DNA of 64,000 nt from a virus. Each line of letters starts with the position of its first letter. The stretch's first letter is position 1. Under the pieces are notes generated by a model, which did not search any database, was not told where the DNA came from, and saw nothing but the letters and a program-made list of their open reading frames with translations. The translations under genes were made by a program, and so were the position numbers. The DNA is taken from positions 1 through 64,000 of IMG/VR virus record IMGVR_UViG_3300042566_000762. One strand, given 5' to 3'. This document shows, piece by piece, positions 48,995-64,000 of the stretch.

Positions 48995-51900
48995 TTATGC
49001 GTAAAAAATACCTAATATCTGATTTAGTGGTGCAAATGTACCAGTTAACTTATATGTTTTACCATTATAAAAGAATACTAAACCTTCACTTGCAACTATT
49101 TTTTCAATACCACCCAATTGATTTAATCTTTCCAATTCAGTTTTCAATTTTTGTATTTGAGCTGGATTTCCAGCACTTCTAACTTGGTCTGCTACTGATT
49201 TGAATTTTTGTTTCATCGCTCTAATAGCATTTTCAGGGTGAACAGTTAATACACTTCCAACAAAATCTAATACATCCGCACCTACACCTAAAAATATTTC
49301 TTCAAATGGTCTAATGTTTTCTTTTTGTTGTTTGATTACATTTACTTTATCATTTTCAATTGCCCACTCTTGCAATTCTTCATTTGAAATTGTGTTTAAA
49401 CGAAATGTTTTTTCGCCAAACGCCCATCTTCTAATCAACGCTTCTTTAGTAATTTTATCAACTTTAGTAGGCGCTTTTGATTCAATCCACCAATCCCACC
49501 AACTTTGATGATAATCAGCCACATTGTCCGTATCTTTTAAATGAAATTCCGATTGTAATTTATTTAATTTTGATAAATATTTACCTTGTTTAGAACTTAA
49601 ATTATTATCTTTTGGAATAGAAGTTATGGGAGGGCCTTGAATCGTATATTTTGATTGAACATCTGCGTTTACTTGTTTAATCATTCCCGCCAATTTAGAT
49701 GCCGCTGATTGGTCTGCACCAACTGCTTCACCTTTTTCATTATAACAAGTTGTATTATGAAATACTAAAAGTGCTTGGCCATATGGAATAACATTAACCG
49801 AATCTGGCCATATTACTTCTAAATTCATAAAGCATTGGCCTTCGTTAAATATTTTCTTTCTTTGTGCTTCCGATAACCCACTAATTGCTGCTGATAAATC
49901 TTTCATTGCAAAGTTGTAAGCATCGGTTAATCCACCTCTACCGGCAAACTTTGATGCAACATCTTCGATACCCATTGCGTTTGCACCTGCGTTTGCTAAA
50001 TTACCTTTATTTCTGGCTGCAATCAATCTACCATTTTTCCAACTAATTGCTAATGCCTGGCCATCTGTTTTTTCTCTAACAACTCCCAAGTCACCTTCTA
50101 ATGCAGATTTAATTATATTTTTCAAATCACCAAAAGTCAAATCCATATCATCAAAAGGATGTGACATGTGTCCGTATGCACCACCCTCCATCAATAATCC
50201 CTCTTTAATAAATTCCGTTTCTACATAATCAACATCTGGAAGGTTTTTTATACTATATGTAATAGTTCTTTCTTCTGCATCGTCATCACCAAATATTGCA
50301 TCTGCTTTTGGAAAATCAGTTTGAGTATATCCACCATTTTTATACCAATCTTCACTTTTATCGGTATTTAATTTTCTTTTTTTACCTTTTTGAACAAATG
50401 AACCATCTGGAACATCTGCGGTATTGGATACCATAACACTACTAACTTCGTTTAAATCGGGTTCAATATTTAATTCTTTTTCCATTCTGGTAATATCATC
50501 ATATCCCATATTACGAAGTGCTTTTGCAACTGCCGTTGGGTTGTTATGATTTGGATTACCAAATAAAAATGCATTAATTCTTTTTCTGAATTTTGCATCT
50601 CTGTAAAGTTGAATTATGTTTTTGAAATGAATATCTTTATTACCCATTTCATATATATTTTGTCCTTTTTGTCCTAAACGAAATGTGGTTGCCTTTTTAC
50701 CATTTATAGTTGGCATTCCGTGGTCATCTTTACCAATATCTTTAACAACAACTTTTTTGTTTTTGAATTTACCCATTAAAACCTCATCACCCTTATCAAC
50801 ATCTATATTAATATCTTCATTATAGATTTGTTTATTTATCTTACCATAATTTCTCATTAAAATACCGGCTACTGCATGTGCTTGATTTTCAATTGGAGAA
50901 CCAGTTGCACCATCTTTAACTTCATCTTTTACTAATCCCAATTCATCTTGTTTTCTATGAACCATTTCGTGTGCAAGAGTTCTAAGTATGTCTGCAGTTA
51001 ATCTACCTTCTATTGCAACATATATTTCTTTAGACATTGGATTATACCCACCTAAAGAGGTTTTTGCTTCTGAATATTCTCTACCACTTAGTAAAGTTAT
51101 TTTTGGAGTTTCTTTTAACTTTAATTTTTTAGTTGCATATTCTACAAAATGTTGAATTGAATTTTGTTTTGTTTCTGAAATATTTTCGTTTAATCCTTTT
51201 GTAAGATTTTGTAATTTTGAAATTTCCTTTTGTTTTTTATAAGATTCCAATGTTTTTAATAATTGTTGAGGATTTGGTTCAAATGTTTCCATTTTTTTAA
51301 CAACGTCTGCAACTAATTTTATAAACATATCACCATTTGCTTTTGTTTCATTTACTTCTTCCGCCAATCCCATTCCTTTAAGTGCCATATGTCCCAATCC
51401 AAAAAGGCCTGCACCTACTTGTGCTTCGATGTGGCCCTCACCCGCTGCCAATCCTAATGCTTCTAATCCACAATGTTTTCCAAAATCAATTGCTGCATGT
51501 GCTGCAAATCCTCCCACACTTGATACGGAATGTGATGCACCTTGACTTGCGGCTTGTATTACTCCACCAATACCCTTTCCTGCCGCAGCTGCACCGGTTG
51601 CTCCTGCGATTGCTGCACCGACAACAACCGATGCTCCTATTACCGCTACATCTTTAAGAGTTGAAATACATGCTTTTCTTTGTCTTTTTTCCTCATGCTC
51701 ACTATGTTTATATTGACCATCTTTATCTTTAAACCAACCAAATTTAGGTTTTCCTGTATACATAGTTGATAATGCCAAAGATTTTAAACCTCTACCGGTA
51801 TTTTTTAATTGATGGTATTTTTCTTTTACAACTTCGTATACTTTTTCAGCTATATTTTTTGGAAGATTTGAAATAAAATCACCAATTTTTTGAGACCAAT

Positions 51901-53254
51901 TTTTTCTTGTTTCAGAATGTGGGTTGGTTGTTTCATGAACATCATGTTGTTCTTCTTCCGTAAAATCTTTAATTATCGCTTCACATTTTACTTTTGCCTC
52001 TTTTGCTATTTCAGCAGCTTTTTCTTTAATTTTATCTATACCAGATTTTTCAGCATCAGATTTTAATTCTCCACCTCCTAACTTTTGTTCAGGTGGGGGG
52101 CCTTGTTCTTGACCTTTTTCACCAGGTGCAGCAGTTGGTTTTTCTTTATCTATTTTTCCCTGCGGCGTTTGTCCTTTTTTTGTGGGTTGGCCGGGTTCGG
52201 ATGGTTTCGCCGATTGAGTTGCTGCTTTTCCAGGTTCCGTTTTTTTCTTTGGGTCGTTTGCAGGTGCATCATCTGGTCCTGCTATTTTTGAAGCTTGAAT
52301 GTGTGCTGGATGTTCTTTTGGTAATCTTAATGCATCTCTTGCTTTAATTTTCTTTTGTTGGCCTTTACTATTTGTATAACTAATATCAACATCCAATGCT
52401 TTATTTGAAGCTTCACCAAAATATTCTTTAGCAAATTCTTCAAACATTTCATTTGTAATATATCTTTCTATTATTTCTGAAATGGGGTCATATGGTGCTT
52501 TATTTCCGTCAAATGCCTTTTTCTCATCTTCGGGATGTTCCGTTTCATGTCTTGTAGGATGTGGTTCTGGTCTCATTTCCGATGATGGTTTTGTATTATT
52601 GGTTTCATCTATTGAACCTGTTGGTGCACCATTGATATATCCTCCCGGTAAATTCAATCCAACTCCTATTCCTCCTGGAAATCCTTCGTTCAATTTTGTT
52701 GTTATCATTTTAAAAATCTCTTTGTCAAATTTTGGATATGCTTTAAGAAAAAACTTTTTAGCCTTTTCTTTATCGTTACTTCCCAATCCTCGTCTAACTT
52801 CGGTTCCACTTATAGGATTTTCTTCGGCAGGTATTGGATATGTATAACCTATTTCATCGTAACCATATCCAGCATTGCCTTTATATGGTTTAAAATATTT
52901 TCCCTGTAATCTACTTGCATCTTTATCACCTACTGCTGCAATATATGCAATAGTTTGTCCGTCATATTTTTTTAATATTTCGGCAGGTCTATATGGATTG
53001 TTTACTTTTACAAACTTAGTAGATGGAACACCAAACATCTTAGTTGCAATTTCCTTTTTCTCATTAAAAGAAAATGGAGATTTATCGGAAGATGTATCAT
53101 TTGATGTTGCAATATAAACATTTGCAGAACCAAATTCACTTACTAAGTTTTGATATGCCGCATAATGTCCTTTATGGAATGGTTGAAAACGACCAGCATA
53201 TACGACTATTTCACCTTGTATTTTTGGTTTATCTTTTTCTGTCAATAAATTCAT
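48995..53254 (-). CDS. 1419-aa multidomain protein: HxGH nucleotidyltransferase + Gly-zipper hydrophobic region + HExxH zincin-like domain + KxDG ligase-like domain
   Basis: GRFQPFHKGH..ISGTEVR; VAVIGASVVVGAAIAGATG; LAHEMVH; EKTDGQ..NLEVI..EGLVF..YKLTG. Confidence 0.75.
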   Translation of the reverse strand: MNLLTEKDKPKIQGEIVVYAGRFQPFHKGHYAAYQNLVSEFGSANVYIATSNDTSSDKSPFSFNEKKEIATKMFGVPSTKFVKVNNPYRPAEILKKYDGQTIAYIAAVGDKDASRLQGKYFKPYKGNAGYGYDEIGYTYPIPAEENPISGTEVRRGLGSNDKEKAKKFFLKAYPKFDKEIFKMITTKLNEGFPGGIGVGLNLPGGYINGAPTGSIDETNNTKPSSEMRPEPHPTRHETEHPEDEKKAFDGNKAPYDPISEIIERYITNEMFEEFAKEYFGEASNKALDVDISYTNSKGQQKKIKARDALRLPKEHPAHIQASKIAGPDDAPANDPKKKTEPGKAATQSAKPSEPGQPTKKGQTPQGKIDKEKPTAAPGEKGQEQGPPPEQKLGGGELKSDAEKSGIDKIKEKAAEIAKEAKVKCEAIIKDFTEEEQHDVHETTNPHSETRKNWSQKIGDFISNLPKNIAEKVYEVVKEKYHQLKNTGRGLKSLALSTMYTGKPKFGWFKDKDGQYKHSEHEEKRQRKACISTLKDVAVIGASVVVGAAIAGATGAAAAGKGIGGVIQAASQGASHSVSSVGGFAAHAAIDFGKHCGLEALGLAAGEGHIEAQVGAGLFGLGHMALKGMGLAEEVNETKANGDMFIKLVADVVKKMETFEPNPQQLLKTLESYKKQKEISKLQNLTKGLNENISETKQNSIQHFVEYATKKLKLKETPKITLLSGREYSEAKTSLGGYNPMSKEIYVAIEGRLTADILRTLAHEMVHRKQDELGLVKDEVKDGATGSPIENQAHAVAGILMRNYGKINKQIYNEDINIDVDKGDEVLMGKFKNKKVVVKDIGKDDHGMPTINGKKATTFRLGQKGQNIYEMGNKDIHFKNIIQLYRDAKFRKRINAFLFGNPNHNNPTAVAKALRNMGYDDITRMEKELNIEPDLNEVSSVMVSNTADVPDGSFVQKGKKRKLNTDKSEDWYKNGGYTQTDFPKADAIFGDDDAEERTITYSIKNLPDVDYVETEFIKEGLLMEGGAYGHMSHPFDDMDLTFGDLKNIIKSALEGDLGVVREKTDGQALAISWKNGRLIAARNKGNLANAGANAMGIEDVASKFAGRGGLTDAYNFAMKDLSAAISGLSEAQRKKIFNEGQCFMNLEVIWPDSVNVIPYGQALLVFHNTTCYNEKGEAVGADQSAASKLAGMIKQVNADVQSKYTIQGPPITSIPKDNNLSSKQGKYLSKLNKLQSEFHLKDTDNVADYHQSWWDWWIESKAPTKVDKITKEALIRRWAFGEKTFRLNTISNEELQEWAIENDKVNVIKQQKENIRPFEEIFLGVGADVLDFVGSVLTVHPENAIRAMKQKFKSVADQVRSAGNPAQIQKLKTELERLNQLGGIEKIVASEGLVFFYNGKTYKLTGTFAPLNQILGIFYA

Positions 53255-53408: not shown

Positions 53409-53951
53409 TTAATTTTGGTAATACAATTCCGGATATTCTACTAATATATATACACCTTTGTTTTGTGTTGCATATTTGTAAGATAATTCTATATCGGTTG
53501 GTGTTTTTAAATCTAAAAATTCTATATTTTTACAAAGAGATTTAAATTCTTCTAAATAATTTCCTCTGTGTTGGTGACCAGGGTCTAATGGTTTGTCCGA
53601 ACCTTTACCCAATCTAATTAGAATGTGTGGACGTTTTCCGGTCATCAATTCGTATTTATCAATATGATTTACTAATTGATTGGTTGCTGATATTAAAAAA
53701 TCCCATCTTGGATAAAATGATATTACTAATTTATTTGTCATTGCCAATCCCAATGTCATACCCATTTGAGTTTCTTCCATTACTGGTAATTCAATCATTT
53801 TATCTTTTGAAACTTCACCCAATGTTGTACTCATTGGATTTCCTGCATAAAGAATTTGTTGGCCTATGAATATTGAATTATCCAAATCTGATAATTGATT
53901 CATAGCAGATGTCAATGCATCTTTGTATGGTGTATATTTTGGTGTGTTCAT
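53409..53951 (-). CDS. TPP-dependent enzyme, E1-beta/transketolase pyrimidine-binding domain (start reassigned to MNTPKY)
   Basis: IFIGQ, IELPVMEETQMGMTLGLA, YPRWDF..ATNQLVN, GHQH. Confidence 0.85.
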   Translation of the reverse strand: MNTPKYTPYKDALTSAMNQLSDLDNSIFIGQQILYAGNPMSTTLGEVSKDKMIELPVMEETQMGMTLGLAMTNKLVISFYPRWDFLISATNQLVNHIDKYELMTGKRPHILIRLGKGSDKPLDPGHQHRGNYLEEFKSLCKNIEFLDLKTPTDIELSYKYATQNKGVYILVEYPELYYQN

Positions 53952-53953
53952 AA

Positions 53954-54592
53954 TTAAAAGATAACCCACTTTCCACTTCCGTAGTGAGGGTATTTTGATT
54001 TATAAGTATAATGTATTACATCCGATGGAAGGTCTCTCTTTTCGTTCCACGTTGCTTCGGTTGGTGTGTTTGTTGAAATTCCATTATCTTCTACTATAAA
54101 ATATAAAGGTAAATTAAAGTTTCTTGCATATTTGTGAACTTCATAAAATATACCACTCTCAAAACTCATATCACCAATAAAACACCAAACCTTATCCTCT
54201 CCACCATCTTTTTTTATAGATAGTGCAATTCCTAATGCAATTGATAATGTTGAACCAACAATTGCAGATGAATAAAATTTAGCATCTATATCACACATTG
54301 TAATAGATTTACCATCTTTGATTAATTCGGTTGCATAATCGGCAGATATTCCTTTTAAAACCCAATGATAATGAGAACGCCACGTTGAGAATACCCAATC
54401 CGTTTCTTTAACTCTTTTAAATACTTCTATTAATTGTTCTTCGTTTCCGTTTGATAAATGTATTGGGCCTCTTATCTTTCCGGCCTCCCATAAATCAACG
54501 ATGTCCTGCTCAAACTTAATTAATTTCTCAGGTGTCCAACCAATTTCTATTTCATTTCTTACGATTGAATATTGTTCTAAATTTTGTATCAT
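53954..54592 (-). CDS. TPP-dependent enzyme, E1-alpha-like subunit
   Basis: IRGPIHLSNGNE, STWRSHYH, SAIVG, GDMS..SG.FYE...EDN TPP-binding motif. Confidence 0.88.
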   Translation of the reverse strand: MIQNLEQYSIVRNEIEIGWTPEKLIKFEQDIVDLWEAGKIRGPIHLSNGNEEQLIEVFKRVKETDWVFSTWRSHYHWVLKGISADYATELIKDGKSITMCDIDAKFYSSAIVGSTLSIALGIALSIKKDGGEDKVWCFIGDMSFESGIFYEVHKYARNFNLPLYFIVEDNGISTNTPTEATWNEKRDLPSDVIHYTYKSKYPHYGSGKWVIF

Positions 54593-54624
54593 TATCTATC
54601 TCTTTTTTGTAATATTGGATTTGT
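54592..54624 (-). pseudogene. 3'-end relic of an rmlC copy (TNPILQKRDR*)
   Basis: Matches the rmlC end (SPILQKRDR*) and is coupled to the E1-alpha start. Confidence 0.75.
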
Positions 54625-54659
54625 CTTTGTTTATTTAAACATATTTTTCAATGTTTAAC

Positions 54660-55259
54660 TTAAAGTATTGTTTTTTCGGTTTTACTAGGATGATATCCTA
54701 TATTATATTTATTACTTTTATCTAAAATATTTTTAAAATCTTCATCAATATAATTAATATTTAAATAATCAAATAATTCAGAGAAATTTCCATAAAATAA
54801 ATCTTCATAATAAAAAGAACGAAATAATGGGTCTTTTAATTCAAATAATACATTTTCCAAAGATACAAACACATCTTCCTTTTCTTTTATCATTTCTTCG
54901 GTTATGCCAGCTAAGTGATATTTTCTTTTGGTTTTATCTAAAAAATTTTTATTATGTTGTGCAGTAATAGAACTAATGACCTGTTCTCTTTTATTTTTTC
55001 TAGATATTAATAACACTTTATCAAAGTCATTTATAATTTTCTCTTTATTAATTTTTAGCAAGCTAAAATTACTTATATCACTTTTTACTAAAACATTTTC
55101 ATATTTGATACATTCTTCGTATTTTGTTTTTTTAATTCCAGTTTCTTTGTAATGAGTAAATGGTTGATTAAAATATTCATAATTGGAATTTTGTCTTAAA
55201 AAATACTCCGATATTGAATTAGTTCCACTACGTGGTATATATAATATTAATATTTTCAT
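54660..55259 (-). CDS. Sulfotransferase family protein (Stf0-like)
   Basis: IPRSGTN, NQPF, LISRKN..QVIS, YEDL. Confidence 0.78.
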   Translation of the reverse strand: MKILILYIPRSGTNSISEYFLRQNSNYEYFNQPFTHYKETGIKKTKYEECIKYENVLVKSDISNFSLLKINKEKIINDFDKVLLISRKNKREQVISSITAQHNKNFLDKTKRKYHLAGITEEMIKEKEDVFVSLENVLFELKDPLFRSFYYEDLFYGNFSELFDYLNINYIDEDFKNILDKSNKYNIGYHPSKTEKTIL

Positions 55260-55408
55260 CTATCTCTTTTTTGCAATGTTGGTTTATCTGATGGCCGTTC
55301 CATTTGATATTCCGGGTCGTTCCATTTAACCACTCCTTGTTCATCTGCATCAACATAACCAAATTTTTTCGATGGAGTAATTTGAAACTCATCCCATTTA
55401 TTACTCAT
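55256..55408 (-). pseudogene. Internally deleted rmlC paralog, in-frame 50-aa mini-ORF
   Basis: MSNKWDEFQITPSKKFG/YVDADEQGVVKWNDPEYQMERPSDKPTLQKRDR versus rmlC KKWNDIDVSFLKPFG...FVEENAQGVVKWNDPEFQIEWPTDSPILQKRDR. Confidence 0.85.
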
Positions 55409-55863
55409 ATTATTGTTGTATTTTTTGATTTAAATAAATCATTATGTAGAAATCCAACTAATGTAAATCTTTTACCTACACAATTTTCTACTCTATGTGT
55501 TTCTTCTCCTGTAAAATATATCATAGTTCCTATTTTTGGTTTTATAGTTAGTTCATTAAATATCAATTCACCTCCCGTATATTTATCATTTAAAAATATA
55601 ACAAATGAATATGGGTTGATATGAGAATGTGTTGTTTTAACTTGTTCAATATTTTCATCGGTGTATTGTATTCTAAATTTCTTAAAATCACATTTTATAA
55701 ATTCAGGAATAACATTAACAACTTTTTCTAAATGTGGAATTAAATTTAATCCGTGAAAATGATAAATATTATCATATACAGAAATAACATTATTGTTATC
55801 CCATAAATTAAGTATCGAATTACATTGTACATTTGATATGTAATTATTTACAATCGTAATCAT
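55405..55863 (-). CDS. 2OG-Fe(II) oxygenase
   Basis: SFVIFLNDKYTGGEL, PKIG, HRVE...GKRFTL. Confidence 0.85.
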   Translation of the reverse strand: MITIVNNYISNVQCNSILNLWDNNNVISVYDNIYHFHGLNLIPHLEKVVNVIPEFIKCDFKKFRIQYTDENIEQVKTTHSHINPYSFVIFLNDKYTGGELIFNELTIKPKIGTMIYFTGEETHRVENCVGKRFTLVGFLHNDLFKSKNTTII

Positions 55864-55881
55864 ATAATATTAACTATAATA

Positions 55882-56256
55882 TCATAGTAATTTTTTTTCT
55901 CTTGATTTCCAATACATCTTCCCATAACTGTGGCACAATTCATCACCCGCCTTTATGTTTTTTAATGAGAAAAATTCTATAATGATTGGTTTTTCTATGT
56001 TTATTAATCTCCAACGTATATTTGGTGTATCACTATGATTATAAATTGAACCATACCCCAATGGTAGTAAGGATTCTGTGTCAGTAAGACTGAAAAGATA
56101 ATCAATACCTGGATTAAATGGTTGAAGATATGTTTTAAGACTATAACAAGTTTCAACAATACTGCCTTCATCAATATCTTGACAAGCAAAAACTCCGAAA
56201 CCCATTATTTCATCTATGTATTTTACTTCTAATTCGATTTTATTTTTAATAATCAT
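55882..56256 (-). CDS. SET-domain methyltransferase
   Basis: GFGVFA..I..G, YNHSDTPN, I.AGDELCHSYG. Confidence 0.9.
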   Translation of the reverse strand: MIIKNKIELEVKYIDEIMGFGVFACQDIDEGSIVETCYSLKTYLQPFNPGIDYLFSLTDTESLLPLGYGSIYNHSDTPNIRWRLINIEKPIIIEFFSLKNIKAGDELCHSYGKMYWKSREKKLL

Positions 56257-56262
56257 ATGTCA

Positions 56263-56294
56263 TAAATATACGAAAAAAAGTTCATATTTCCAAA
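56263..56294 (-). promoter_or_regulatory. TTTG-N20-TATATTTA promoter upstream of the SET gene
   Basis: Minus strand TTTG GAAATATGAACTTTTTTTCG TATATTTA. Confidence 0.6.
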
Positions 56295-56400
56295 TTTATT
56301 AAAATCACATTTTATAAATTCAGGAATAATATTAACAACTTTTTATAAATGTGGAATTAAATTTTGTATTTGATATATAATTGTCTATAACCATAACCAT
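56295..56400 (-). pseudogene. Deleted and frameshifted relic of the 2OG oxygenase 5' region
   Basis: MVMVIDNYISN then NLIPHL*KVVNIIPEFIKCDF, versus MITIVNNYISN...NLIPHLEKVVNVIPEFIKCDF; DNA near-identical to about 55683-55746. Confidence 0.85.
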
Positions 56401-56413
56401 ATAATATTACATA

Positions 56414-56593
56414 TTATGTTTGATTTGCATAACCCAAAGGGAATCCATTTCTAAATTCTGCTCCCATTTTTGGAACTATCATTTGATATGCCATTATTAA
56501 TTCCTGTATACCATTATCCAAATTTACATGTGGTCTCCAACCTATTTCAATATCATTTCTAACTATTGAATATTGTTCTAAATTTTTTATCAT
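56414..56593 (-). pseudogene. In-frame 59-aa chimera: E1-alpha N-terminus fused to epimerase C-terminus
   Basis: MIKNLEQYSIVRNDIEIGW+RPHVNLDNGIQELIMAYQMIVPKMGAEFRNGFPLGYANQT; junction at shared GGTTGG. Confidence 0.9.
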
Positions 56594-57135
56594 CTATCTC
56601 TTTTTTGTAATATTGGTGAATCCGTTGGCCATTCGATTTGAAATTCAGGGTCATTCCATTTTACAACACCTTGTGCGTTTTCTTCAACAAAATCACCTTC
56701 ATAAAATAAATTATAATGAAATACACAATCGGTTAATGCATAGTGTCCATTTGCAAATCCAGGTGGAACTAATATTTGGTCTCTGGTTTTTTCAGTAAGT
56801 AAATATGAATTCCAATCACCATATGTAGGTGATTCTTTTCTAACATCCAATACTACTAAAAATATATCACCGACCAAAGCTTGAACCAATTTCCAAGTCT
56901 TATTATCCCAATGCAATCCTCTCAATACACCTTTGTATGATTTTGAGAATCTACCATGTACTTTCAAATCTCCGTGCATAAAATTATGAACAGGATGTTC
57001 TTCCGGATGATATGTTGTCCAAATCTCTCCCCTATATTCTCTATATACCGATGGTGAAAATACTGGTACATCTTTACCAAATGGTTTTAAAAATGATACA
57101 TCTATATCATTCCATTTTTTATCTTTATAACTCAT
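56590..57135 (-). CDS. rmlC: dTDP-4-dehydrorhamnose 3,5-epimerase family protein
   Basis: RG, SYKGVLRGLH, KLV, DVRKESPTYG.W, VPPGFANGH, WNDP..I.WP. Confidence 0.92.
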   Translation of the reverse strand: MSYKDKKWNDIDVSFLKPFGKDVPVFSPSVYREYRGEIWTTYHPEEHPVHNFMHGDLKVHGRFSKSYKGVLRGLHWDNKTWKLVQALVGDIFLVVLDVRKESPTYGDWNSYLLTEKTRDQILVPPGFANGHYALTDCVFHYNLFYEGDFVEENAQGVVKWNDPEFQIEWPTDSPILQKRDR

Positions 57136-57968
57136 ATTAATTTATTTTTATGCGTATTAGTTAAGTATTTTGCTAATTCTTTTGCGTATTCAATATGTCC
57201 GAAATATCCAGGATGTAAATCTTCATATCCTGTTAATTCTCCTTTTAATTCATCTGTTATTGTTAGTTTATTTCTCAAACAATAATTGTAAATATCATCC
57301 GATTCCTGTGTGTTTGAAAATTTTATAATATCTTCTTTATCAAATGTAGTTGTTAAATATAACCAATTTTTTTGCATTAAAAATATTTTAATATTATTAA
57401 ATTTACAAAAAGAATATAATCCAGCTAATGCATATTCATCATTTTTTAAATTAGCTTGAAAATTAAAATGATTTTCGTGCCAATTTAAAAATATATCTTT
57501 ATATTCCAAATCTTTTTCTAAAATTTTAGGATTAAAATAATCTCTAGTGGCGCCGGCCATCTCGTAAATATCACCATCATTTTTTGAATTAACTATATAA
57601 TATTCGTTGGTTTTATTTAAGAATACATCACATCTACTAGGGTCAGGCTTATCTAATATAATAAAAAATTTATTTTTATTTTTCCAATTTTTTTCTATAA
57701 AATCATAAGTCATTCTAACTATTCTTTGAACACCTACTCCCGATTTAGCTTCGTTAATACATTTCACATTTATTAATTTAGATAATCTATATCCAAAATT
57801 AACTTCTTCTCTATTTTTCCAACTTACATTATGTAATTTTTTATATAACCTATGAACACCAATACCTCTGATATTCGGTTCTTCTAATCCACCACCTTCA
57901 CAATGCGAACTTCCGTTAACATAAAAAAATTGATATTTACTAAAATCCATACTATCCCAAATTTGCAT
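57132..57968 (-). CDS. SGNH/GDSL-like protein
   Basis: VNGSSH..G, N.AKSG.G..RI.R, DLHPG..GH. Confidence 0.72.
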   Translation of the reverse strand: MQIWDSMDFSKYQFFYVNGSSHCEGGGLEEPNIRGIGVHRLYKKLHNVSWKNREEVNFGYRLSKLINVKCINEAKSGVGVQRIVRMTYDFIEKNWKNKNKFFIILDKPDPSRCDVFLNKTNEYYIVNSKNDGDIYEMAGATRDYFNPKILEKDLEYKDIFLNWHENHFNFQANLKNDEYALAGLYSFCKFNNIKIFLMQKNWLYLTTTFDKEDIIKFSNTQESDDIYNYCLRNKLTITDELKGELTGYEDLHPGYFGHIEYAKELAKYLTNTHKNKLI

Positions 57969-58923
57969 ACCCTAAAGGAAATCCATTTCTAAATTCTGCA
58001 CTCATTTTGGGAACTATCATTTGATATGCCATTATTAATTCCTGTATACCATTATCCAAATTTACATGTGGTCTCCAACCGGTTTCTTCTATTTTTGAAT
58101 TTGATACAATATAGTTTCGTTTATCAGGGTCTTGATAATAATCATCGTATACTACTGCAAAATCTTTTACATATTTTTGTATTTTTTCCAATAATTCTTG
58201 TTTATTCAAATTTGCATCACTCAATCCAATATTAAAAACTTCTCCTTTATATCTTTCATATCTATCCAACATAAATGCAAATACGGATGCTACATCTCTA
58301 ATATGAATAAAATTTCTTTTAAATGTTTTTTCAAATACAACAATGTATTTATCGGTAATAGCTTTATAAACAAAATCATTTACTAATAAATCCGTTCTCA
58401 TTCTAGTTGAAACTCCAAATACGGTTGCTAATCTAAATACGATTGCATCAGTACAATTTCTTAAAAAATTTTCAGCTTCACATTTAGTTTGACCATAAAC
58501 CGATATAGGAGTGAGTGGAGATTCTTCATTACATTCCAATTCACCCGTTCCTAACCCATATCCACTATTTGTATTTGGATATAGAATTTTTTTATCTTTT
58601 CCGTTTGTAAATTTAACAATATTAACTATTTGTTGAAAGTTAATTTCTTTTGCAAGTTGTGGGTCTGCGTCGCATGCAGGAAACCCAACAATGGCTGCCA
58701 ATGGAATTATTACATCTGCTCCATCACAAAGTTTTTCTAATAATGTTTCATTACGGACATCACCATAAATAAATTTAAATTTAGAAGTATATGTATATCC
58801 CAATAAAGATGTTTGATTAAATAATAATTTATCTAATACCGTTACATTGTGGCCATCTTCCAATAATCGTTTTGTTATAACCGAACCTAAATATCCTGCA
58901 CCACCGGTAATGAAAACTTTCAT
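57952..58923 (-). CDS. NAD-dependent NDP-sugar epimerase/dehydratase (extended SDR)
   Basis: ITGGAGYLGS, LAAIVG.P, YGQTK (YxxxK), RLATVFG, RNFIHIRD. Confidence 0.93.
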   Translation of the reverse strand: MKVFITGGAGYLGSVITKRLLEDGHNVTVLDKLLFNQTSLLGYTYTSKFKFIYGDVRNETLLEKLCDGADVIIPLAAIVGFPACDADPQLAKEINFQQIVNIVKFTNGKDKKILYPNTNSGYGLGTGELECNEESPLTPISVYGQTKCEAENFLRNCTDAIVFRLATVFGVSTRMRTDLLVNDFVYKAITDKYIVVFEKTFKRNFIHIRDVASVFAFMLDRYERYKGEVFNIGLSDANLNKQELLEKIQKYVKDFAVVYDDYYQDPDKRNYIVSNSKIEETGWRPHVNLDNGIQELIMAYQMIVPKMSAEFRNGFPLGYANLG

Positions 58924-59702
58924 AACTTATTTTTAATATAAATATAAAATTCTTTTGAAAAATTGTCATGCCATAATTCTCCTGGGTGGTGATTATCTCT
59001 AGCTTTTAAATCATTTTTATAACAATTTATTGGGTCAAAAAATGTATCATAATTTATAGTAGAATTTAATTCCGATTTCAATTCTTTAAAAACATCGTAA
59101 TAATATCCAGCTATTGTATGAAATATTTTTATATTGTATAATTTTGCAATTACTTCTACGAATTTGTAAGCTTCCCAAAATGTCATTAAATCCTGATAAT
59201 CATTTCTTAATTGAACAAACATCAAATCTTCATCTTCGTTTTTCCAAACTAAATCCATATCATTGGCCATTCTAAATCCACCTATTTTTTTAAAAGAACC
59301 ATTTTCTTTAATATAATCTCTCCTACTAAAACCAGGCCACATTATCAAAACCATATCCGGTATAAATTCGGATGAAATTATTTTATATAATGTTTTCGCT
59401 ATAAATGAAGTCGATGCACCATACATTCCATAATTAAAAACTTTACCAAATTGTTCACCAATAAGATTTGGCCATATTTTTTCATTTTTAACACCAATAC
59501 CCATAGTCCAAGAACAACCCAATGTTAATATGTTATAATCGGATTTATCTTTTAATGGGTTAGAACGATACCCATGTTCATTCATTTTATACCAAATTGT
59601 ATTATCATCATTTGTATCACTTGCTAATGTTGGTAATATTTTATTTTTATATTGTTCAAATACAAAGACATCATCGGATAATATTTTTTCAAAATCTTTC
59701 AT
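58920..59702 (-). CDS. SGNH/GDSL-like protein
   Basis: N..GYRS, LGCSWTMGIGV, W, NYG..GAS, W...SR, ARDNHHPG..H. Confidence 0.75.
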   Translation of the reverse strand: MKDFEKILSDDVFVFEQYKNKILPTLASDTNDDNTIWYKMNEHGYRSNPLKDKSDYNILTLGCSWTMGIGVKNEKIWPNLIGEQFGKVFNYGMYGASTSFIAKTLYKIISSEFIPDMVLIMWPGFSRRDYIKENGSFKKIGGFRMANDMDLVWKNEDEDLMFVQLRNDYQDLMTFWEAYKFVEVIAKLYNIKIFHTIAGYYYDVFKELKSELNSTINYDTFFDPINCYKNDLKARDNHHPGELWHDNFSKEFYIYIKNKL

Positions 59703-61144
59703 TAAATAATTAAGTTATTTTGAATAGAATACAATTCGTTTATAAAATCTGCACCATATAATTTTGTGTTATTATATTCTAAAAATAATTTTTGATTATG
59801 TAGTAATATATCTTCCATTTTCCAATACCATTCATGCAATTCTTCATTTGACATTGAACACAATCTTTTAATTTCATTGTGTATAGCTATCATTCTATCT
59901 GCTGTCGACTCAATTGTATCATATGTCTCATCTATGAATCCGTCAAATGTTTTAAATCCTAAGTCTCTTAACAATTGTAAACCCCCTGCAAATGTTACAA
60001 ATATAAATGGTTGAAAATTAACAATAGGTTTAAATATTTTTTCAGTAAGAGATTTATGTTCACCATCTACCAATGTTTCAAATAATATTTCAAAATAAGA
60101 ATCCAAATGTGGTTTAAAATCAACATCAGTCCATGCATTTATTTCTCCGTAAGTATTTCCTGTTTCACTTTGTAAATTATGTGGAAACATCGTATATGCT
60201 GATTTAATTTTGTCTGCATCTATATCATGTAATTTATACTCAGATATTAAATGCCTTAAACTGGGTTCATTTAATCCGTTTGTTGATAAAAATGACCAAT
60301 CTCCATATTGTAATAAATCATCATTTATCATTCTATACATAACTGCCAACCTATGTAATCTGGCATTTCGCATTTTCATTAAGTATTTGTTTGGTCTTAT
60401 TGTATTTTTACTGTTATTAAAATCATCTATATTCATTGATAATTTTAAATTATTTTTTATGCCATCGGAATAAAACCAAGAACCATGGTCTAAACAAAAT
60501 GGTAAATTTCTAACTTCGTATTTTCTATCTTGTGGTTTAAACCAATTTTCATACAATTGTCTGGCATTAAAACTATTGACAACAACAAATATTGATGTTG
60601 ATGGTAATCCACTATTTTTTAAACATTCGGTTAATCCGTTATGCATGTTTAAATCTAAAAAAGGTTCCATTGTATAATCTATGTAAATAATTCCTTTTCT
60701 TTTTTTTACTTTTTCCAAAACTTCTCTTGAAATAAATTTCCAAAAATACGAACCATTTAATTTGTCAGCTATACCATTTTGAACGCCTGTGAATTGTGTA
60801 AATATTGGATTTGGTCTAATTGGATATATAAATTTTTTATTTGTATTTCTTTCAAATAAAACCGAAGATTCTTTATAATCTAAATGTTCTCTATAAACAT
60901 TGGCTTGGAAAAAATATCCATGTGCTGTATTGGGATTATGACCCATTGAATCTTCAAACATATCTTTCATAAAAATTTGATTACCTCTATCGGTTGTAGA
61001 TGCTTCAAATATTGTAGAATGCAATGTTCTATTTGTGTGGACAGACGATATATAATTTATGATACCCAGTTGGGTATCTAATGCATTTGGTAATATAAAA
61101 GTAGGAAATATGTAATCAAATACAAATGTTAATTGTTTTTTCAT
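59702..61144 (-). CDS. Glycosyltransferase-like protein (GT10-like TEK motif)
   Basis: R.HR, ET...LTEKIFKPI...QPFI....L..LR.LGFKTF..IDETYD. Confidence 0.6.
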   Translation of the reverse strand: MKKQLTFVFDYIFPTFILPNALDTQLGIINYISSVHTNRTLHSTIFEASTTDRGNQIFMKDMFEDSMGHNPNTAHGYFFQANVYREHLDYKESSVLFERNTNKKFIYPIRPNPIFTQFTGVQNGIADKLNGSYFWKFISREVLEKVKKRKGIIYIDYTMEPFLDLNMHNGLTECLKNSGLPSTSIFVVVNSFNARQLYENWFKPQDRKYEVRNLPFCLDHGSWFYSDGIKNNLKLSMNIDDFNNSKNTIRPNKYLMKMRNARLHRLAVMYRMINDDLLQYGDWSFLSTNGLNEPSLRHLISEYKLHDIDADKIKSAYTMFPHNLQSETGNTYGEINAWTDVDFKPHLDSYFEILFETLVDGEHKSLTEKIFKPIVNFQPFIFVTFAGGLQLLRDLGFKTFDGFIDETYDTIESTADRMIAIHNEIKRLCSMSNEELHEWYWKMEDILLHNQKLFLEYNNTKLYGADFINELYSIQNNLII

Positions 61145-63587: not shown

Positions 63588-64000
63588 TATATTAATTTTG
63601 CTTTAAACGCCGTTTCAGTATCGTGATATATTTTATTAAGTATTATTTTAGAAAAATCTCTATGTCCCTTATATGACCAATGTAAATCTTCTATTTCACC
63701 ATTGGTACAAGTTTTTATATTTTCATAAACTGTCCATAATTGTTCTACTTCCCAAAAAACCAATTTATCTATTTTTTTATTTTTTAAATATTTTTTAATA
63801 AAATCAAATCTTAAATTTTGTCTTTTTTTAGTATTTTCATCGCAAAGTAAAGATAAAAAATATTCTATATGTTCTATTTCATTTTTATTAAAATTCAATT
63901 GTTTTAATAATGCCGATGAATTTAAACTAATTGTATTAAATTTATAAATTATATCATTTTTAATATTAAATTCATTATTTGGAATATCAAATCTACTATA
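63587..64000 (-). CDS. SGNH-like protein, 5' end outside the window
   Basis: Frame stays open to 64000 (YSRFDIPN...); C-terminal DLHWSYKGH. Confidence 0.65.
   Translation of the reverse strand, partial: YSRFDIPNNEFNIKNDIIYKFNTISLNSSALLKQLNFNKNEIEHIEYFLSLLCDENTKKRQNLRFDFIKKYLKNKKIDKLVFWEVEQLWTVYENIKTCTNGEIEDLHWSYKGHRDFSKIILNKIYHDTETAFKAKLI

Follow-up and report, generated by a model that had tools for sequence, protein, structure and literature searches.

Several enzymes that depend on thiamine diphosphate (ThDP) build carbon branches into sugars. YerE, ErwE and MyGE add acyl groups derived from 2-oxo acids to the C4 ketone of a nucleotide sugar; YerE joins a pyruvate-derived acetyl group to a 4-keto sugar, while ErwE and MyGE use longer acids, and reductases, transaminases or oxygenases act afterwards (passages of PMC9306805). 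AviB1/AviB2 of the avilamycin (eurekanate) pathway and Pau11/Pau12 of the paulomycose pathway are two-subunit E1-type ThDP enzymes encoded in sugar clusters without an E2. These pairs are genetically tied to C4 two-carbon branches, and it was proposed that they move a pyruvate-derived C2 unit to C4 of a keto-sugar (sections of PMC4425429 and PMC4753412). Here we describe a very short E1-alpha/E1-beta pair encoded in viral DNA, next to a short-chain dehydrogenase/reductase (SDR) and an RmlC-like sugar epimerase. The window, i.e. the whole stretch of 64,000 nt that was analysed, is the first 64 kb of the 106-kb IMG/VR record IMGVR_UViG_3300042566_000762 (estimated completeness 56%). The pair is very probably a part of GDP-heptose tailoring. 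By analogy with the systems above, it may well be an E2-independent minimal ThDP carboligase which adds a 2-oxo-acid-derived branch to C4 of a GDP-4-keto-heptose, a proposal which we consider evenly balanced between right and wrong.

With the AviB-type systems the phage locus shares an E1-like pair beside enzymes that are predicted to make a 4-keto sugar. However, Pau11 and Pau12 are 325 and 345 aa long, as given in PMC4425429, whereas the phage proteins have 212 and 180 aa and lack both C-terminal parts. Moreover, the AviB and Pau routes concern deoxyhexoses, and the branch is proposed to arise after glycosyl transfer, while the phage context is that of a GDP-heptose. AviB1/AviB2, which a preliminary description of this DNA had put forward as precedent, and Pau11/Pau12 are an analogy rather than a demonstrated family match. 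YerE is a single-chain flavoenzyme of the acetolactate synthase (ALS) type with TPP_enzyme_N, M and C domains, whereas the phage proteins have no Pfam match to TPP_enzyme_N or TPP_enzyme_M, and in a fold search with the phage E1-alpha, ALS-type chains reached Z 8-10 compared to 17-20 for E1-alpha chains.

The SDR and the epimerase lead to another described system, the capsular GDP-heptose route of Campylobacter jejuni (Cj1427/MlghA, Cj1430/MlghB, Cj1428), of which they are clear relatives. That route ends with the NADPH-dependent C4-reductase Cj1428, while in the phage no such enzyme was found in the record and the ThDP enzyme follows the epimerase. A review of the C. jejuni heptose pathways does not contain the word 'thiamine' (PMC10680097).

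The record represents a T4-like myovirus with genes for sheath, baseplate, fibre, portal, major head protein and terminase. The capsid proteins of Flavobacterium phage immuto and Microcystis phage Mel-JY01 come closest to its own, each with approximately 53% identity, and the likeness of its proteins to those of Pelagibacterales is a mere pointer to the host. Marine and freshwater T4-like phages such as pelagimyophages and cyanomyophages carry large variable blocks of sugar genes, the 'LPS-gene' (lipopolysaccharide gene) islands (parts of PMC7029224). The locus described here is a sugar-gene block, too, and the cyanophages S-SM2 and P-TIM68 carry a fused version of the pair beside heptose genes. 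In the pelagimyophage paper on these islands, 'pyruvate dehydrogenase' and 'transketolase' have zero occurrences each (PMC7029224). In our literature search, which covered main texts, we found no earlier account of such a short pair from a heptose or phage cluster.

Domains, active-site residues and fold of the pair

Every gene of the region lies on the minus strand. The argument is carried by the following four:

53409..53951, minus: E1-beta-like subunit with the pyrimidine-binding (Pyr) domain only, 180 aa (Pfam Transket_pyr, homologue alignment)
53954..54592, minus: E1-alpha-like subunit with the diphosphate-binding (PP) domain only, 212 aa (Pfam E1_dh, 2.8e-14)
56590..57135, minus: RmlC-fold sugar C3/C5 epimerase, predicted GDP-4-keto-heptose type, 181 aa (Pfam dTDP_sugar_isom, 8.6e-34; PDB matches)
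57952..58923, minus: predicted Cj1427-like NAD-dependent GDP-heptose C4-dehydrogenase (SDR), 323 aa (Pfam Epimerase family, 9.3e-34; phmmer; model)

E1-alpha covers positions 7-172 of the 300 positions of the E1_dh profile. Matches to DXP_synthase_N and TPP_enzyme_C are weaker, the latter (2.3e-5) being a weak overlap on the PP domain. The protein aligns with residues 54-209 of the 365-aa E1-alpha chain of human pyruvate dehydrogenase (PDH). Its model (pLDDT 92) has this protein as the best fold match, with Z 19.8 and a root mean square deviation (rmsd) of 2.2 Å over 191 residues, spanning chain residues 34-268 of 363. E1-alpha of the branched-chain 2-oxo acid dehydrogenase (BCKDH) comes next (Z 18.9, 17.6 and 16.9), followed by split transketolase and DXPS-like enzymes at approximately Z 15 (15.2). 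The residues GDM...EDN are aligned to GDG...ENN of human E1-alpha, which is the ThDP/Mg motif GDG-X(25-30)-N of the PP domain. Among 44 diverse homologues, G140, D141, N170 and H45 are invariant, H74 is kept in at least 90%, and the C-terminal H203 is conserved.

The listed open reading frame (ORF) of E1-beta (53409-53969, 186 aa) starts with GTG, and its homologues align from the ATG at 53951, resulting in 180 aa. Its sole Pfam match is Transket_pyr (E 1.2e-5), with 25.4 bits under Pfam's cut-off of 27 bits, and no Pfam match to Transketolase_C was found. Alignments to beta chains in the PDB, which are 324-369 aa long, end within the first 125-180 or so residues. Across 40 homologues E54, P56 and E59 of the catalytic-Glu loop (PVxEExQMG), the motif NQLVNHxDK and the dipeptide Q127-H128 are invariant. 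The loop itself, PVMEETQMG in the phage, is aligned to the PLCEQG loop of BCKDH E1-beta. Judged from these alignments, each subunit brings an intact half of the ThDP site, alpha with its GD...N motif and beta with its catalytic-Glu loop. The short E1-alpha and the Pyr-only E1-beta of the preliminary description were thus confirmed by Pfam domain content and homologue alignment.

Several observations connect the two subunits. Only 2 nt separate the stop of E1-alpha from the ATG of E1-beta (TAATTATG), and alpha and beta exist as one natural fused protein in the cyanophages S-SM2 and P-TIM68, in PHROG 34187 (of which the phage E1-beta matches profile positions 234-401 of 405) and in library proteins including P0151, P0204 and P0237. 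A complex prediction scored 0.85 for alpha with beta compared to 0.07 for the best control, with 100% agreement of contacts between runs and a partner pLDDT of at least 89; the mark for such predictions was reached by 116 of 157 solved complexes and by 2 of 215 mismatched pairs. In the predicted interface the Glu loop of beta (residues 53-74) faces alpha residues 98-129. Since E1 alpha/beta complexes were already solved, this prediction indicates likeness only and is no proof of binding.

The short form is not restricted to this phage. E1-alpha matches 3144 proteins at E <= 0.001, the best 120 of which are all 209-212 aa long. After clustering at 50% identity, 2662 representatives have a match at <=1e-3 and 112 of them at <=1e-30; they have mostly 195-220 aa, with a few fusions of approximately 400 aa. 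In one homologue, the library protein P0178, an intein-like insert of approximately 340 residues lies exactly before the GDM motif, its Cys...HN-Cys boundaries having been recognised by eye. In one viral locus (L084:8054-11496) E1-beta makes up the N-terminal 170 residues of a 591-aa protein and is followed by a carbamoyltransferase gene.

A heptose context in phages and cells

The SDR matches the PDB entries 6vo6 and 6vo8 with a phmmer E of 1.6e-100, the next match being at 1.3e-23. Its model superimposes on 6vo6 with Z 41.6 and an rmsd of 1.5 Å over 302 residues at 49% identity, while the next entry reaches Z 35.2. According to its title, 6vo6 is Cj1427 of C. jejuni, and 6vo8 was solved with bound GDP-D-glycero-D-manno-heptose. 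Cj1427 oxidises GDP-heptose at C4 to GDP-4-keto-heptose, and its bound NADH is recycled via 2-oxoglutarate (parts of PMC10680097). Sequence and model alike predict that the phage SDR is a Cj1427-type GDP-heptose C4-dehydrogenase and not a 4,6-dehydratase. The RmlC-like protein matches 7ang and 7an4 with E 1.6e-37, 7m14 with 2.8e-37 and 7ani, 8db5, 8dcl and 8dco also at approximately 1e-37, compared to 2.3e-25 for dTDP RmlC; 7ang, 7an4 and 7ani are DdahB/MlghB structures (PMC7949155). It stays under the NCBIfam rmlC cut-off (113 versus 155.75 bits) and is, by these matches, a clear relative of the MlghB/DdahB/Cj1430 heptose C3/C5 epimerases.

A C4-reductase of the Cj1428 type was searched for by tblastn of the 106-kb record with two SDR types, and only the Cj1427-like gene and a relic of it were found; Pfam scans of the sugar island revealed a single Epimerase-family protein. 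Of the route, the window holds a minimal set of genes, which comprises the dehydrogenase, the epimerase and the ThDP pair but no reductase.

To place this gene set, 80 viral loci (L006-L085; 60 with full flanks) and 80 cellular loci (L088-L167; 45 with full flanks) were compared, the cellular ones having been found by searching genome contigs with an 11-row alignment of E1-alpha homologues. The gene order SDR, RmlC, E1-alpha is conserved across the 80 related viral loci, and in 50 of them the RmlC-like gene is immediately upstream of E1-alpha. Of the 60 viral loci whose flanks are complete, 58 carry a Cj1427-like SDR and 56 an RmlC-like gene, while an NTP-transferase and a DegT-family gene were each found once and a GHMP kinase never. 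Counts of a second SDR in viral loci were set aside, because an own-genome control showed that they were partly cross-matches to the Cj1427-like SDR. The 45 cellular loci all contain E1-beta; they further have GHMP kinase (39), DegT-family (36), Cj1427-like SDR (35), B12 radical SAM (35), NTP-transferase (33), SIS isomerase (15) and RmlC-like (13) genes, and annotated ones show GT2 transferases and Wzm/Wzt exporters. Thus, the pair lies within a conserved sugar-tailoring block in phages and cells, in line with the neighbourhood conservation that the preliminary description had named as a check of its sugar hypothesis.

The cellular sources of the pair comprise Pelagibacteraceae (the closest, 49-57% identity), Nitrospira, candidate-phyla bacteria, Verrucomicrobia, Herbaspirillum, Massilia and small archaea, and the assemblies of Herbaspirillum and Massilia are not labelled as metagenome-assembled genomes (MAGs). 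One member of the DegT family was compared to the PDB, and its closest match was ColD (E 4.5e-51), aminotransferases following at 1e-35 or weaker. ColD is a GDP-4-keto-6-deoxymannose 3-dehydratase, and the DegT-family member tested is ColD-like by this comparison. From the cellular genes, the route therefore looks like GDP-heptose to 4-ketone to 3-deoxy-4-ketone, followed by the ThDP step, and its 3-deoxy-4-ketone parallels the substrate of YerE. In the cyanophages S-SM2 and P-TIM68, the fused genes adjoin genes for phosphoheptose isomerase, a carbohydrate kinase, nucleotidyltransferases and a zinc alcohol dehydrogenase.

The spacing of the two subunit genes differs between cells and phages. 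They are adjacent in 75 of the 76 cellular loci holding both, with L088 as the exception, and in the viral loci they are adjacent in 3 of 60 and 1.7-7.7 kb apart in 53 of 60 (median 5.8 kb). The present window belongs to the three loci with adjacent subunit genes and has its variable cassettes between rmlC and E1-alpha instead. The viral interval between alpha and beta can contain radical SAM enzymes, a HAD phosphatase, several extended SDRs, methyltransferases, a carbamoyltransferase, DUF6071 proteins and a virus-only family of approximately 450 aa.

On L088, a contig of 23 kb from a Pelagibacterales MAG, the genes follow the phage order (methyltransferase, GT2, GT7, radical SAM, SDR, RmlC, E1-alpha ... 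E1-beta), with identities of 61-80%; this contig is probably phage DNA that was binned with a bacterium. In glycan clusters of Pelagibacteraceae (SAR11; L148:4024-8984, L098:11022-14382), up to three further ThDP systems were observed beside the mini pair. These are an ALS/YerE-like enzyme of 560 aa, a longer E1-like pair (279 and 305 aa) and a split transketolase (275 and 299 aa).

Proposed function and alternative explanations

In the proposed route, GDP-D-glycero-D-manno-heptose would come from the host or from the unsequenced part of the phage genome. The Cj1427-like SDR would then oxidise C4, and the RmlC-like enzyme would epimerise C3 and/or C5. Alpha with its PP domain and beta with its Pyr domain would assemble in the cell into a minimal ThDP enzyme that needs no E2. 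This enzyme would decarboxylate a 2-oxo acid, pyruvate by default, and the resulting acyl carbanion would join the C4 ketone to give a 4-C-acyl-branched heptose, which neighbouring glycosyltransferases could place on a cytoplasmic acceptor. The pair most likely acts on the nucleotide sugar, since phages keep it together with dehydrogenase and epimerase and without activation genes, and since no further SDR is available in the phage record for a reduction of the 4-ketone. With one SDR only in the record and no C4-reductase, the ThDP enzyme appears to be the only candidate consumer of the 4-ketone.

Several points weigh against this proposal. Genes for GDP-heptose synthesis (GmhA, HddA, HddC) were not found, as PF13580, PF00288 and PF00483 are matchless in the record, and because of this the substrate supply rests on the host or on the missing approximately 44% of the genome. 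The separation of the subunit genes in most related phages is unusual for an obligate heterodimer, and the frequent co-occurrence with genes of heptose activation in cells is also compatible with a step that precedes the activation to the nucleotide sugar. The donor is a guess. Finally, AviB1/B2 and Pau11/12 have full-length E1 subunits, and in PMC4425429, as far as its relevant sections go, their mechanism is described as unknown.

The main rival is that the pair works in the same pathway with other ThDP chemistry, i.e. as a plain decarboxylase yielding an aldehyde or acyl substituent, in a DXS- or transketolase-like extension of a sugar phosphate before activation, or with a donor other than pyruvate. 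We take this to be possible but on the unlikely side. The fold similarity of the E1-alpha model to split transketolase and DXPS-like enzymes agrees with it, as do the GHMP kinase, NTP-transferase and SIS isomerase genes of the cellular loci and the further ThDP systems that stand side by side in the SAR11 loci described above. As to the donor, the YerE relative ErwE refuses pyruvate and takes longer 2-oxo acids (passages of PMC9306805). On the other hand, the phages have dropped the activation genes and keep the pair with nucleotide-sugar tailoring, and the fold is nearest to the E1-alpha chains that decarboxylate 2-oxo acids, at the Z values of 16.9-19.8 given above, compared to 10.8 for AzcBC and 9.5 for RhiEF, which are minimal two-subunit decarboxylases. 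These weaker fold matches, together with the lack of any phosphoenolpyruvate (PEP) mutase match in the record, also make a phosphonate or sulfonate decarboxylase (phosphonopyruvate or sulfopyruvate type) less likely. Erwiniose and caryophyllose had been considered as heptose-derived long-chain sugars, but this was wrong: they arise from a 3,6-dideoxy-4-keto-hexose and long 2-oxo-acid donors (PMC9306805, in the part on these sugars).

The preliminary description had implied that RmlC and the SDR act on a dTDP- or NDP-4-keto-6-deoxyhexose, which the ThDP pair then branches. This deoxysugar part was not supported and is now improbable. The Pfam name of the epimerase family, dTDP_sugar_isom, would fit it, the known substrates of YerE and AviB are deoxysugars, and the SDR weakly matches models of dTDP-glucose 4,6-dehydratase (2.8e-21, 75.9 bits, with a cut-off of 365). 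However, a dTDP-glucose dehydratase is matched by the SDR at 1e-12 only, in contrast to 1.6e-100 for Cj1427, and the epimerase is approximately twelve orders of magnitude better matched to heptose epimerases than to dTDP RmlC. Further, neither a 4,6-dehydratase nor an RmlA-type transferase was found in the record, and it is heptose genes, including those for GDP-heptose activation, that adjoin the relatives of the pair.

The pair could also be thought of as an auxiliary metabolic one, a working E1 of a pyruvate, acetoin or branched-chain 2-oxo acid dehydrogenase that uses E2 and E3 of the host. Homologues are indeed catalogued as 'pyruvate dehydrogenase E1 component alpha subunit' or 'pyruvate/acetoin dehydrogenase alpha subunit', and the E1 of PDH, BCKDH and acetoin dehydrogenase is the closest fold and sequence family of both phage subunits, with PDH E1-alpha at the top. 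But both subunits are truncated: alpha, whose full-length counterparts have about 320-400 aa, is short by approximately 150 C-terminal residues, and beta is without its entire C-terminal domain. In E1-beta, it is the C-terminal domain that docks E2. The scores are far under the NCBIfam equivalog cut-offs (84.6 versus 393.85 bits for TIGR03182 and 26.3 versus 321 for NF006667). Searches of the whole 106-kb record with 2-oxoacid_dh (PF00198) and Biotin_lipoyl (PF00364) were empty, while control genomes matched, and neither an E2 or lipoyl domain nor a partner of the E3 type came to light in this approximately 56% complete record, although an E2 could still be supplied by the host. The context of the pair is always a glycan cluster. 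Because the C-terminal halves are gone, the equivalog cut-offs are far off and no E2 or lipoyl domain was found, we are confident that the pair is not a PDH, and a function as auxiliary E1 is very improbable. The preliminary description, which had seen no E2 beside the pair and had argued against energy metabolism, is supported on both counts.

Least credible of all are functionless, decaying remnants of full-length E1 genes, as might be suspected from the short proteins and from a region rich in recombination relics, given the large number of homologues of the same length, the invariant catalytic residues, the intact ORFs in all 80 viral and 80 cellular loci, the intein-like insert at the GDM motif of one homologue and the confident model.

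Recombination relics and the rest of the sugar island

In reading direction the genes are SDR, 278-aa ORF, RmlC-like gene, 59-aa chimeric ORF, oxygenase fragment, SET gene, 2-oxoglutarate (2OG)-Fe(II) oxygenase gene, rmlC fragment, 199-aa ORF, E1-alpha and E1-beta. In addition to the four genes given above, the region contains:

54592..54621, minus: relic of the rmlC 3' end (PILQKRDR and stop), immediately before the E1-alpha start (repeat family D4)
54660..55259, minus: inserted 199-aa ORF without family match, copies of the rmlC 3' end on both sides (Pfam, NCBIfam, PHROGs, PDB)
55253..55408, minus: relic of the rmlC C-terminus within a 50-aa ORF (D2; tblastn 67% over 33 aa)
55405..55863, minus: 2OG-Fe(II) oxygenase, 152 aa, inserted cassette (Pfam 2OG-FeII_Oxy_3, 6e-8)
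55882..56256, minus: SET-domain protein, 124 aa, inserted cassette (Pfam SET, 4e-12)
56288..56417, minus: incomplete second copy of the 5' portion of the oxygenase gene (D3, 77 nt, 95%; D5, 72 nt, 76%)
56414..56593, minus: chimeric 59-aa relic ORF, E1-alpha N-terminus and SDR C-terminus (D6, D1, tblastn)
57132..57968, minus: 278-aa ORF of unassigned family between SDR and epimerase (no match in Pfam, PHROGs, NCBIfam)

The preliminary description had noticed relics at 54592 and 56593, at which the rmlC stop overlaps an E1-alpha-type start, and had concluded that rmlC was directly coupled to E1-alpha. Both relics are real. At 56593 the rmlC stop overlaps the ATG of the 59-aa chimeric ORF (ATGA). 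The first 62 nt of this ORF copy the 5' end of E1-alpha (89%, D6), and the other 139 nt copy the 3' end of the SDR gene (90%, D1), the join being a Gly-Trp common to the E1-alpha and SDR proteins; in tblastn, the corresponding values are 86% over 21 aa for the E1-alpha part and 95% over 42 aa for the SDR part. Immediately before the true E1-alpha start codon at 54592 stand the final rmlC codons (PILQKRDR), followed by a TAA that overlaps this ATG. Repeat family D4 is present three times (54578-54621, 55242-55285 and 56576-56619), and a third relic of the rmlC 3' end at 55253-55361 (109 nt) has 80% identity to 56587-56695 (D2). Direct repeats of 62-139 nt with 80-95% identity inside 6.5 kb are not due to chance.

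In the closest relatives, L012 and L017, rmlC (97-98% identical) leads straight into E1-alpha; they also have the 278-aa ORF, at 60-62% identity. The simplest history would start with a tandem duplication that reached from the 3' end of the SDR gene to the 5' end of E1-alpha. Most of the second copy would then have given way to the SET and oxygenase cassettes, and finally the 199-aa gene would have been inserted with a further copy of the rmlC end. The junction relics document the direct rmlC-E1-alpha coupling and the insertion of cassettes. At the nucleotide level the 5.7-kb region had no blastn match among 50,697 phage records; in the same records, relatives were found at the protein level only, in 10 of them.

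The SET-domain gene, an insertion within a phage sugar operon, has a copy of the oxygenase 5' part on either side. In the 199-aa ORF a P-loop-like IPRSGT motif near the N-terminus was recognised by eye, and an assignment as sulfotransferase on the basis of PRSGT was dropped, since Pfam, NCBIfam, PHROGs and PDB gave no support. From 57132 to the end of the window at 64000, and on to 66631 in the record, nine ORFs of approximately 230-300 aa have Gly-x-Ser-type motifs at their N-termini (by eye); one matches DUF6071 (1.1e-10), one weakly GDSL lipase (4e-4), and mutual BLAST similarity exists in two pairs only. The gene at 59702-61144 (minus strand) belongs to a virus-only family of approximately 400-480 aa, often multicopy and located right after E1-alpha in most viral loci. 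An Atlas search weakly points to GT10 fucosyltransferases for this family (0.78-0.79), and one of its clusters is fused to an SDR. Directly downstream of E1-beta, a 1419-aa protein (48995-53254, minus strand) has a cytidylyltransferase-like domain at its N-terminus (Pfam 1.8e-6; PHROG 395), and HExxH and ligase-like KxDG motifs by eye.

The island extends to approximately 73.7 kb of the record, with a radical SAM enzyme, two GT7-like transferases fused to ConA-like lectin domains, a GT2 and a methyltransferase. The two GT7-like proteins (record 68049-70873; L005:6050-8874, minus strand) are paralogous, have approximately 470 aa each and combine an eukaryote-type GT7 domain, similar to beta-4-galactosyltransferases, with a ConA-like lectin/LamG domain. 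Since a simple hydropathy scan revealed no protein with more than one hydrophobic segment, a cytoplasmic glycan acceptor is suggested.

Taken further by analogy, though with more reservation than the function of the pair itself, it is tempting to speculate that this is a third, minimal architecture of nucleotide-sugar C-branching enzymes. It would lead to an undescribed 4-C-acyl-branched sugar of nine or more carbons, used by SAR11, Nitrospira, candidate-phyla bacteria, small archaea and many large aquatic phages. In the phages, the subunit genes may be the fixed borders of a cassette-exchange site that diversifies the glycan on a cytoplasmic target such as the virion.

The findings are important for several reasons. 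Homologues labelled as pyruvate dehydrogenase look like auxiliary genes of energy metabolism in viral metagenomes, which they are not. The proposed pathway is directly accessible to experiments, since assays for Cj1427 and Cj1430 and the GDP-heptose substrate are established (parts of PMC10680097), and if the proposal is true, a two-domain carboligase scaffold of approximately 390 residues would be available for biocatalysis. A very common, tiny ThDP enzyme would then make an undescribed branched heptose on the surfaces of abundant aquatic microbes. Via the phage copies, this sugar would probably be present on phage particles or infected cells, and this would bear on phage-host recognition of the SAR11 type.

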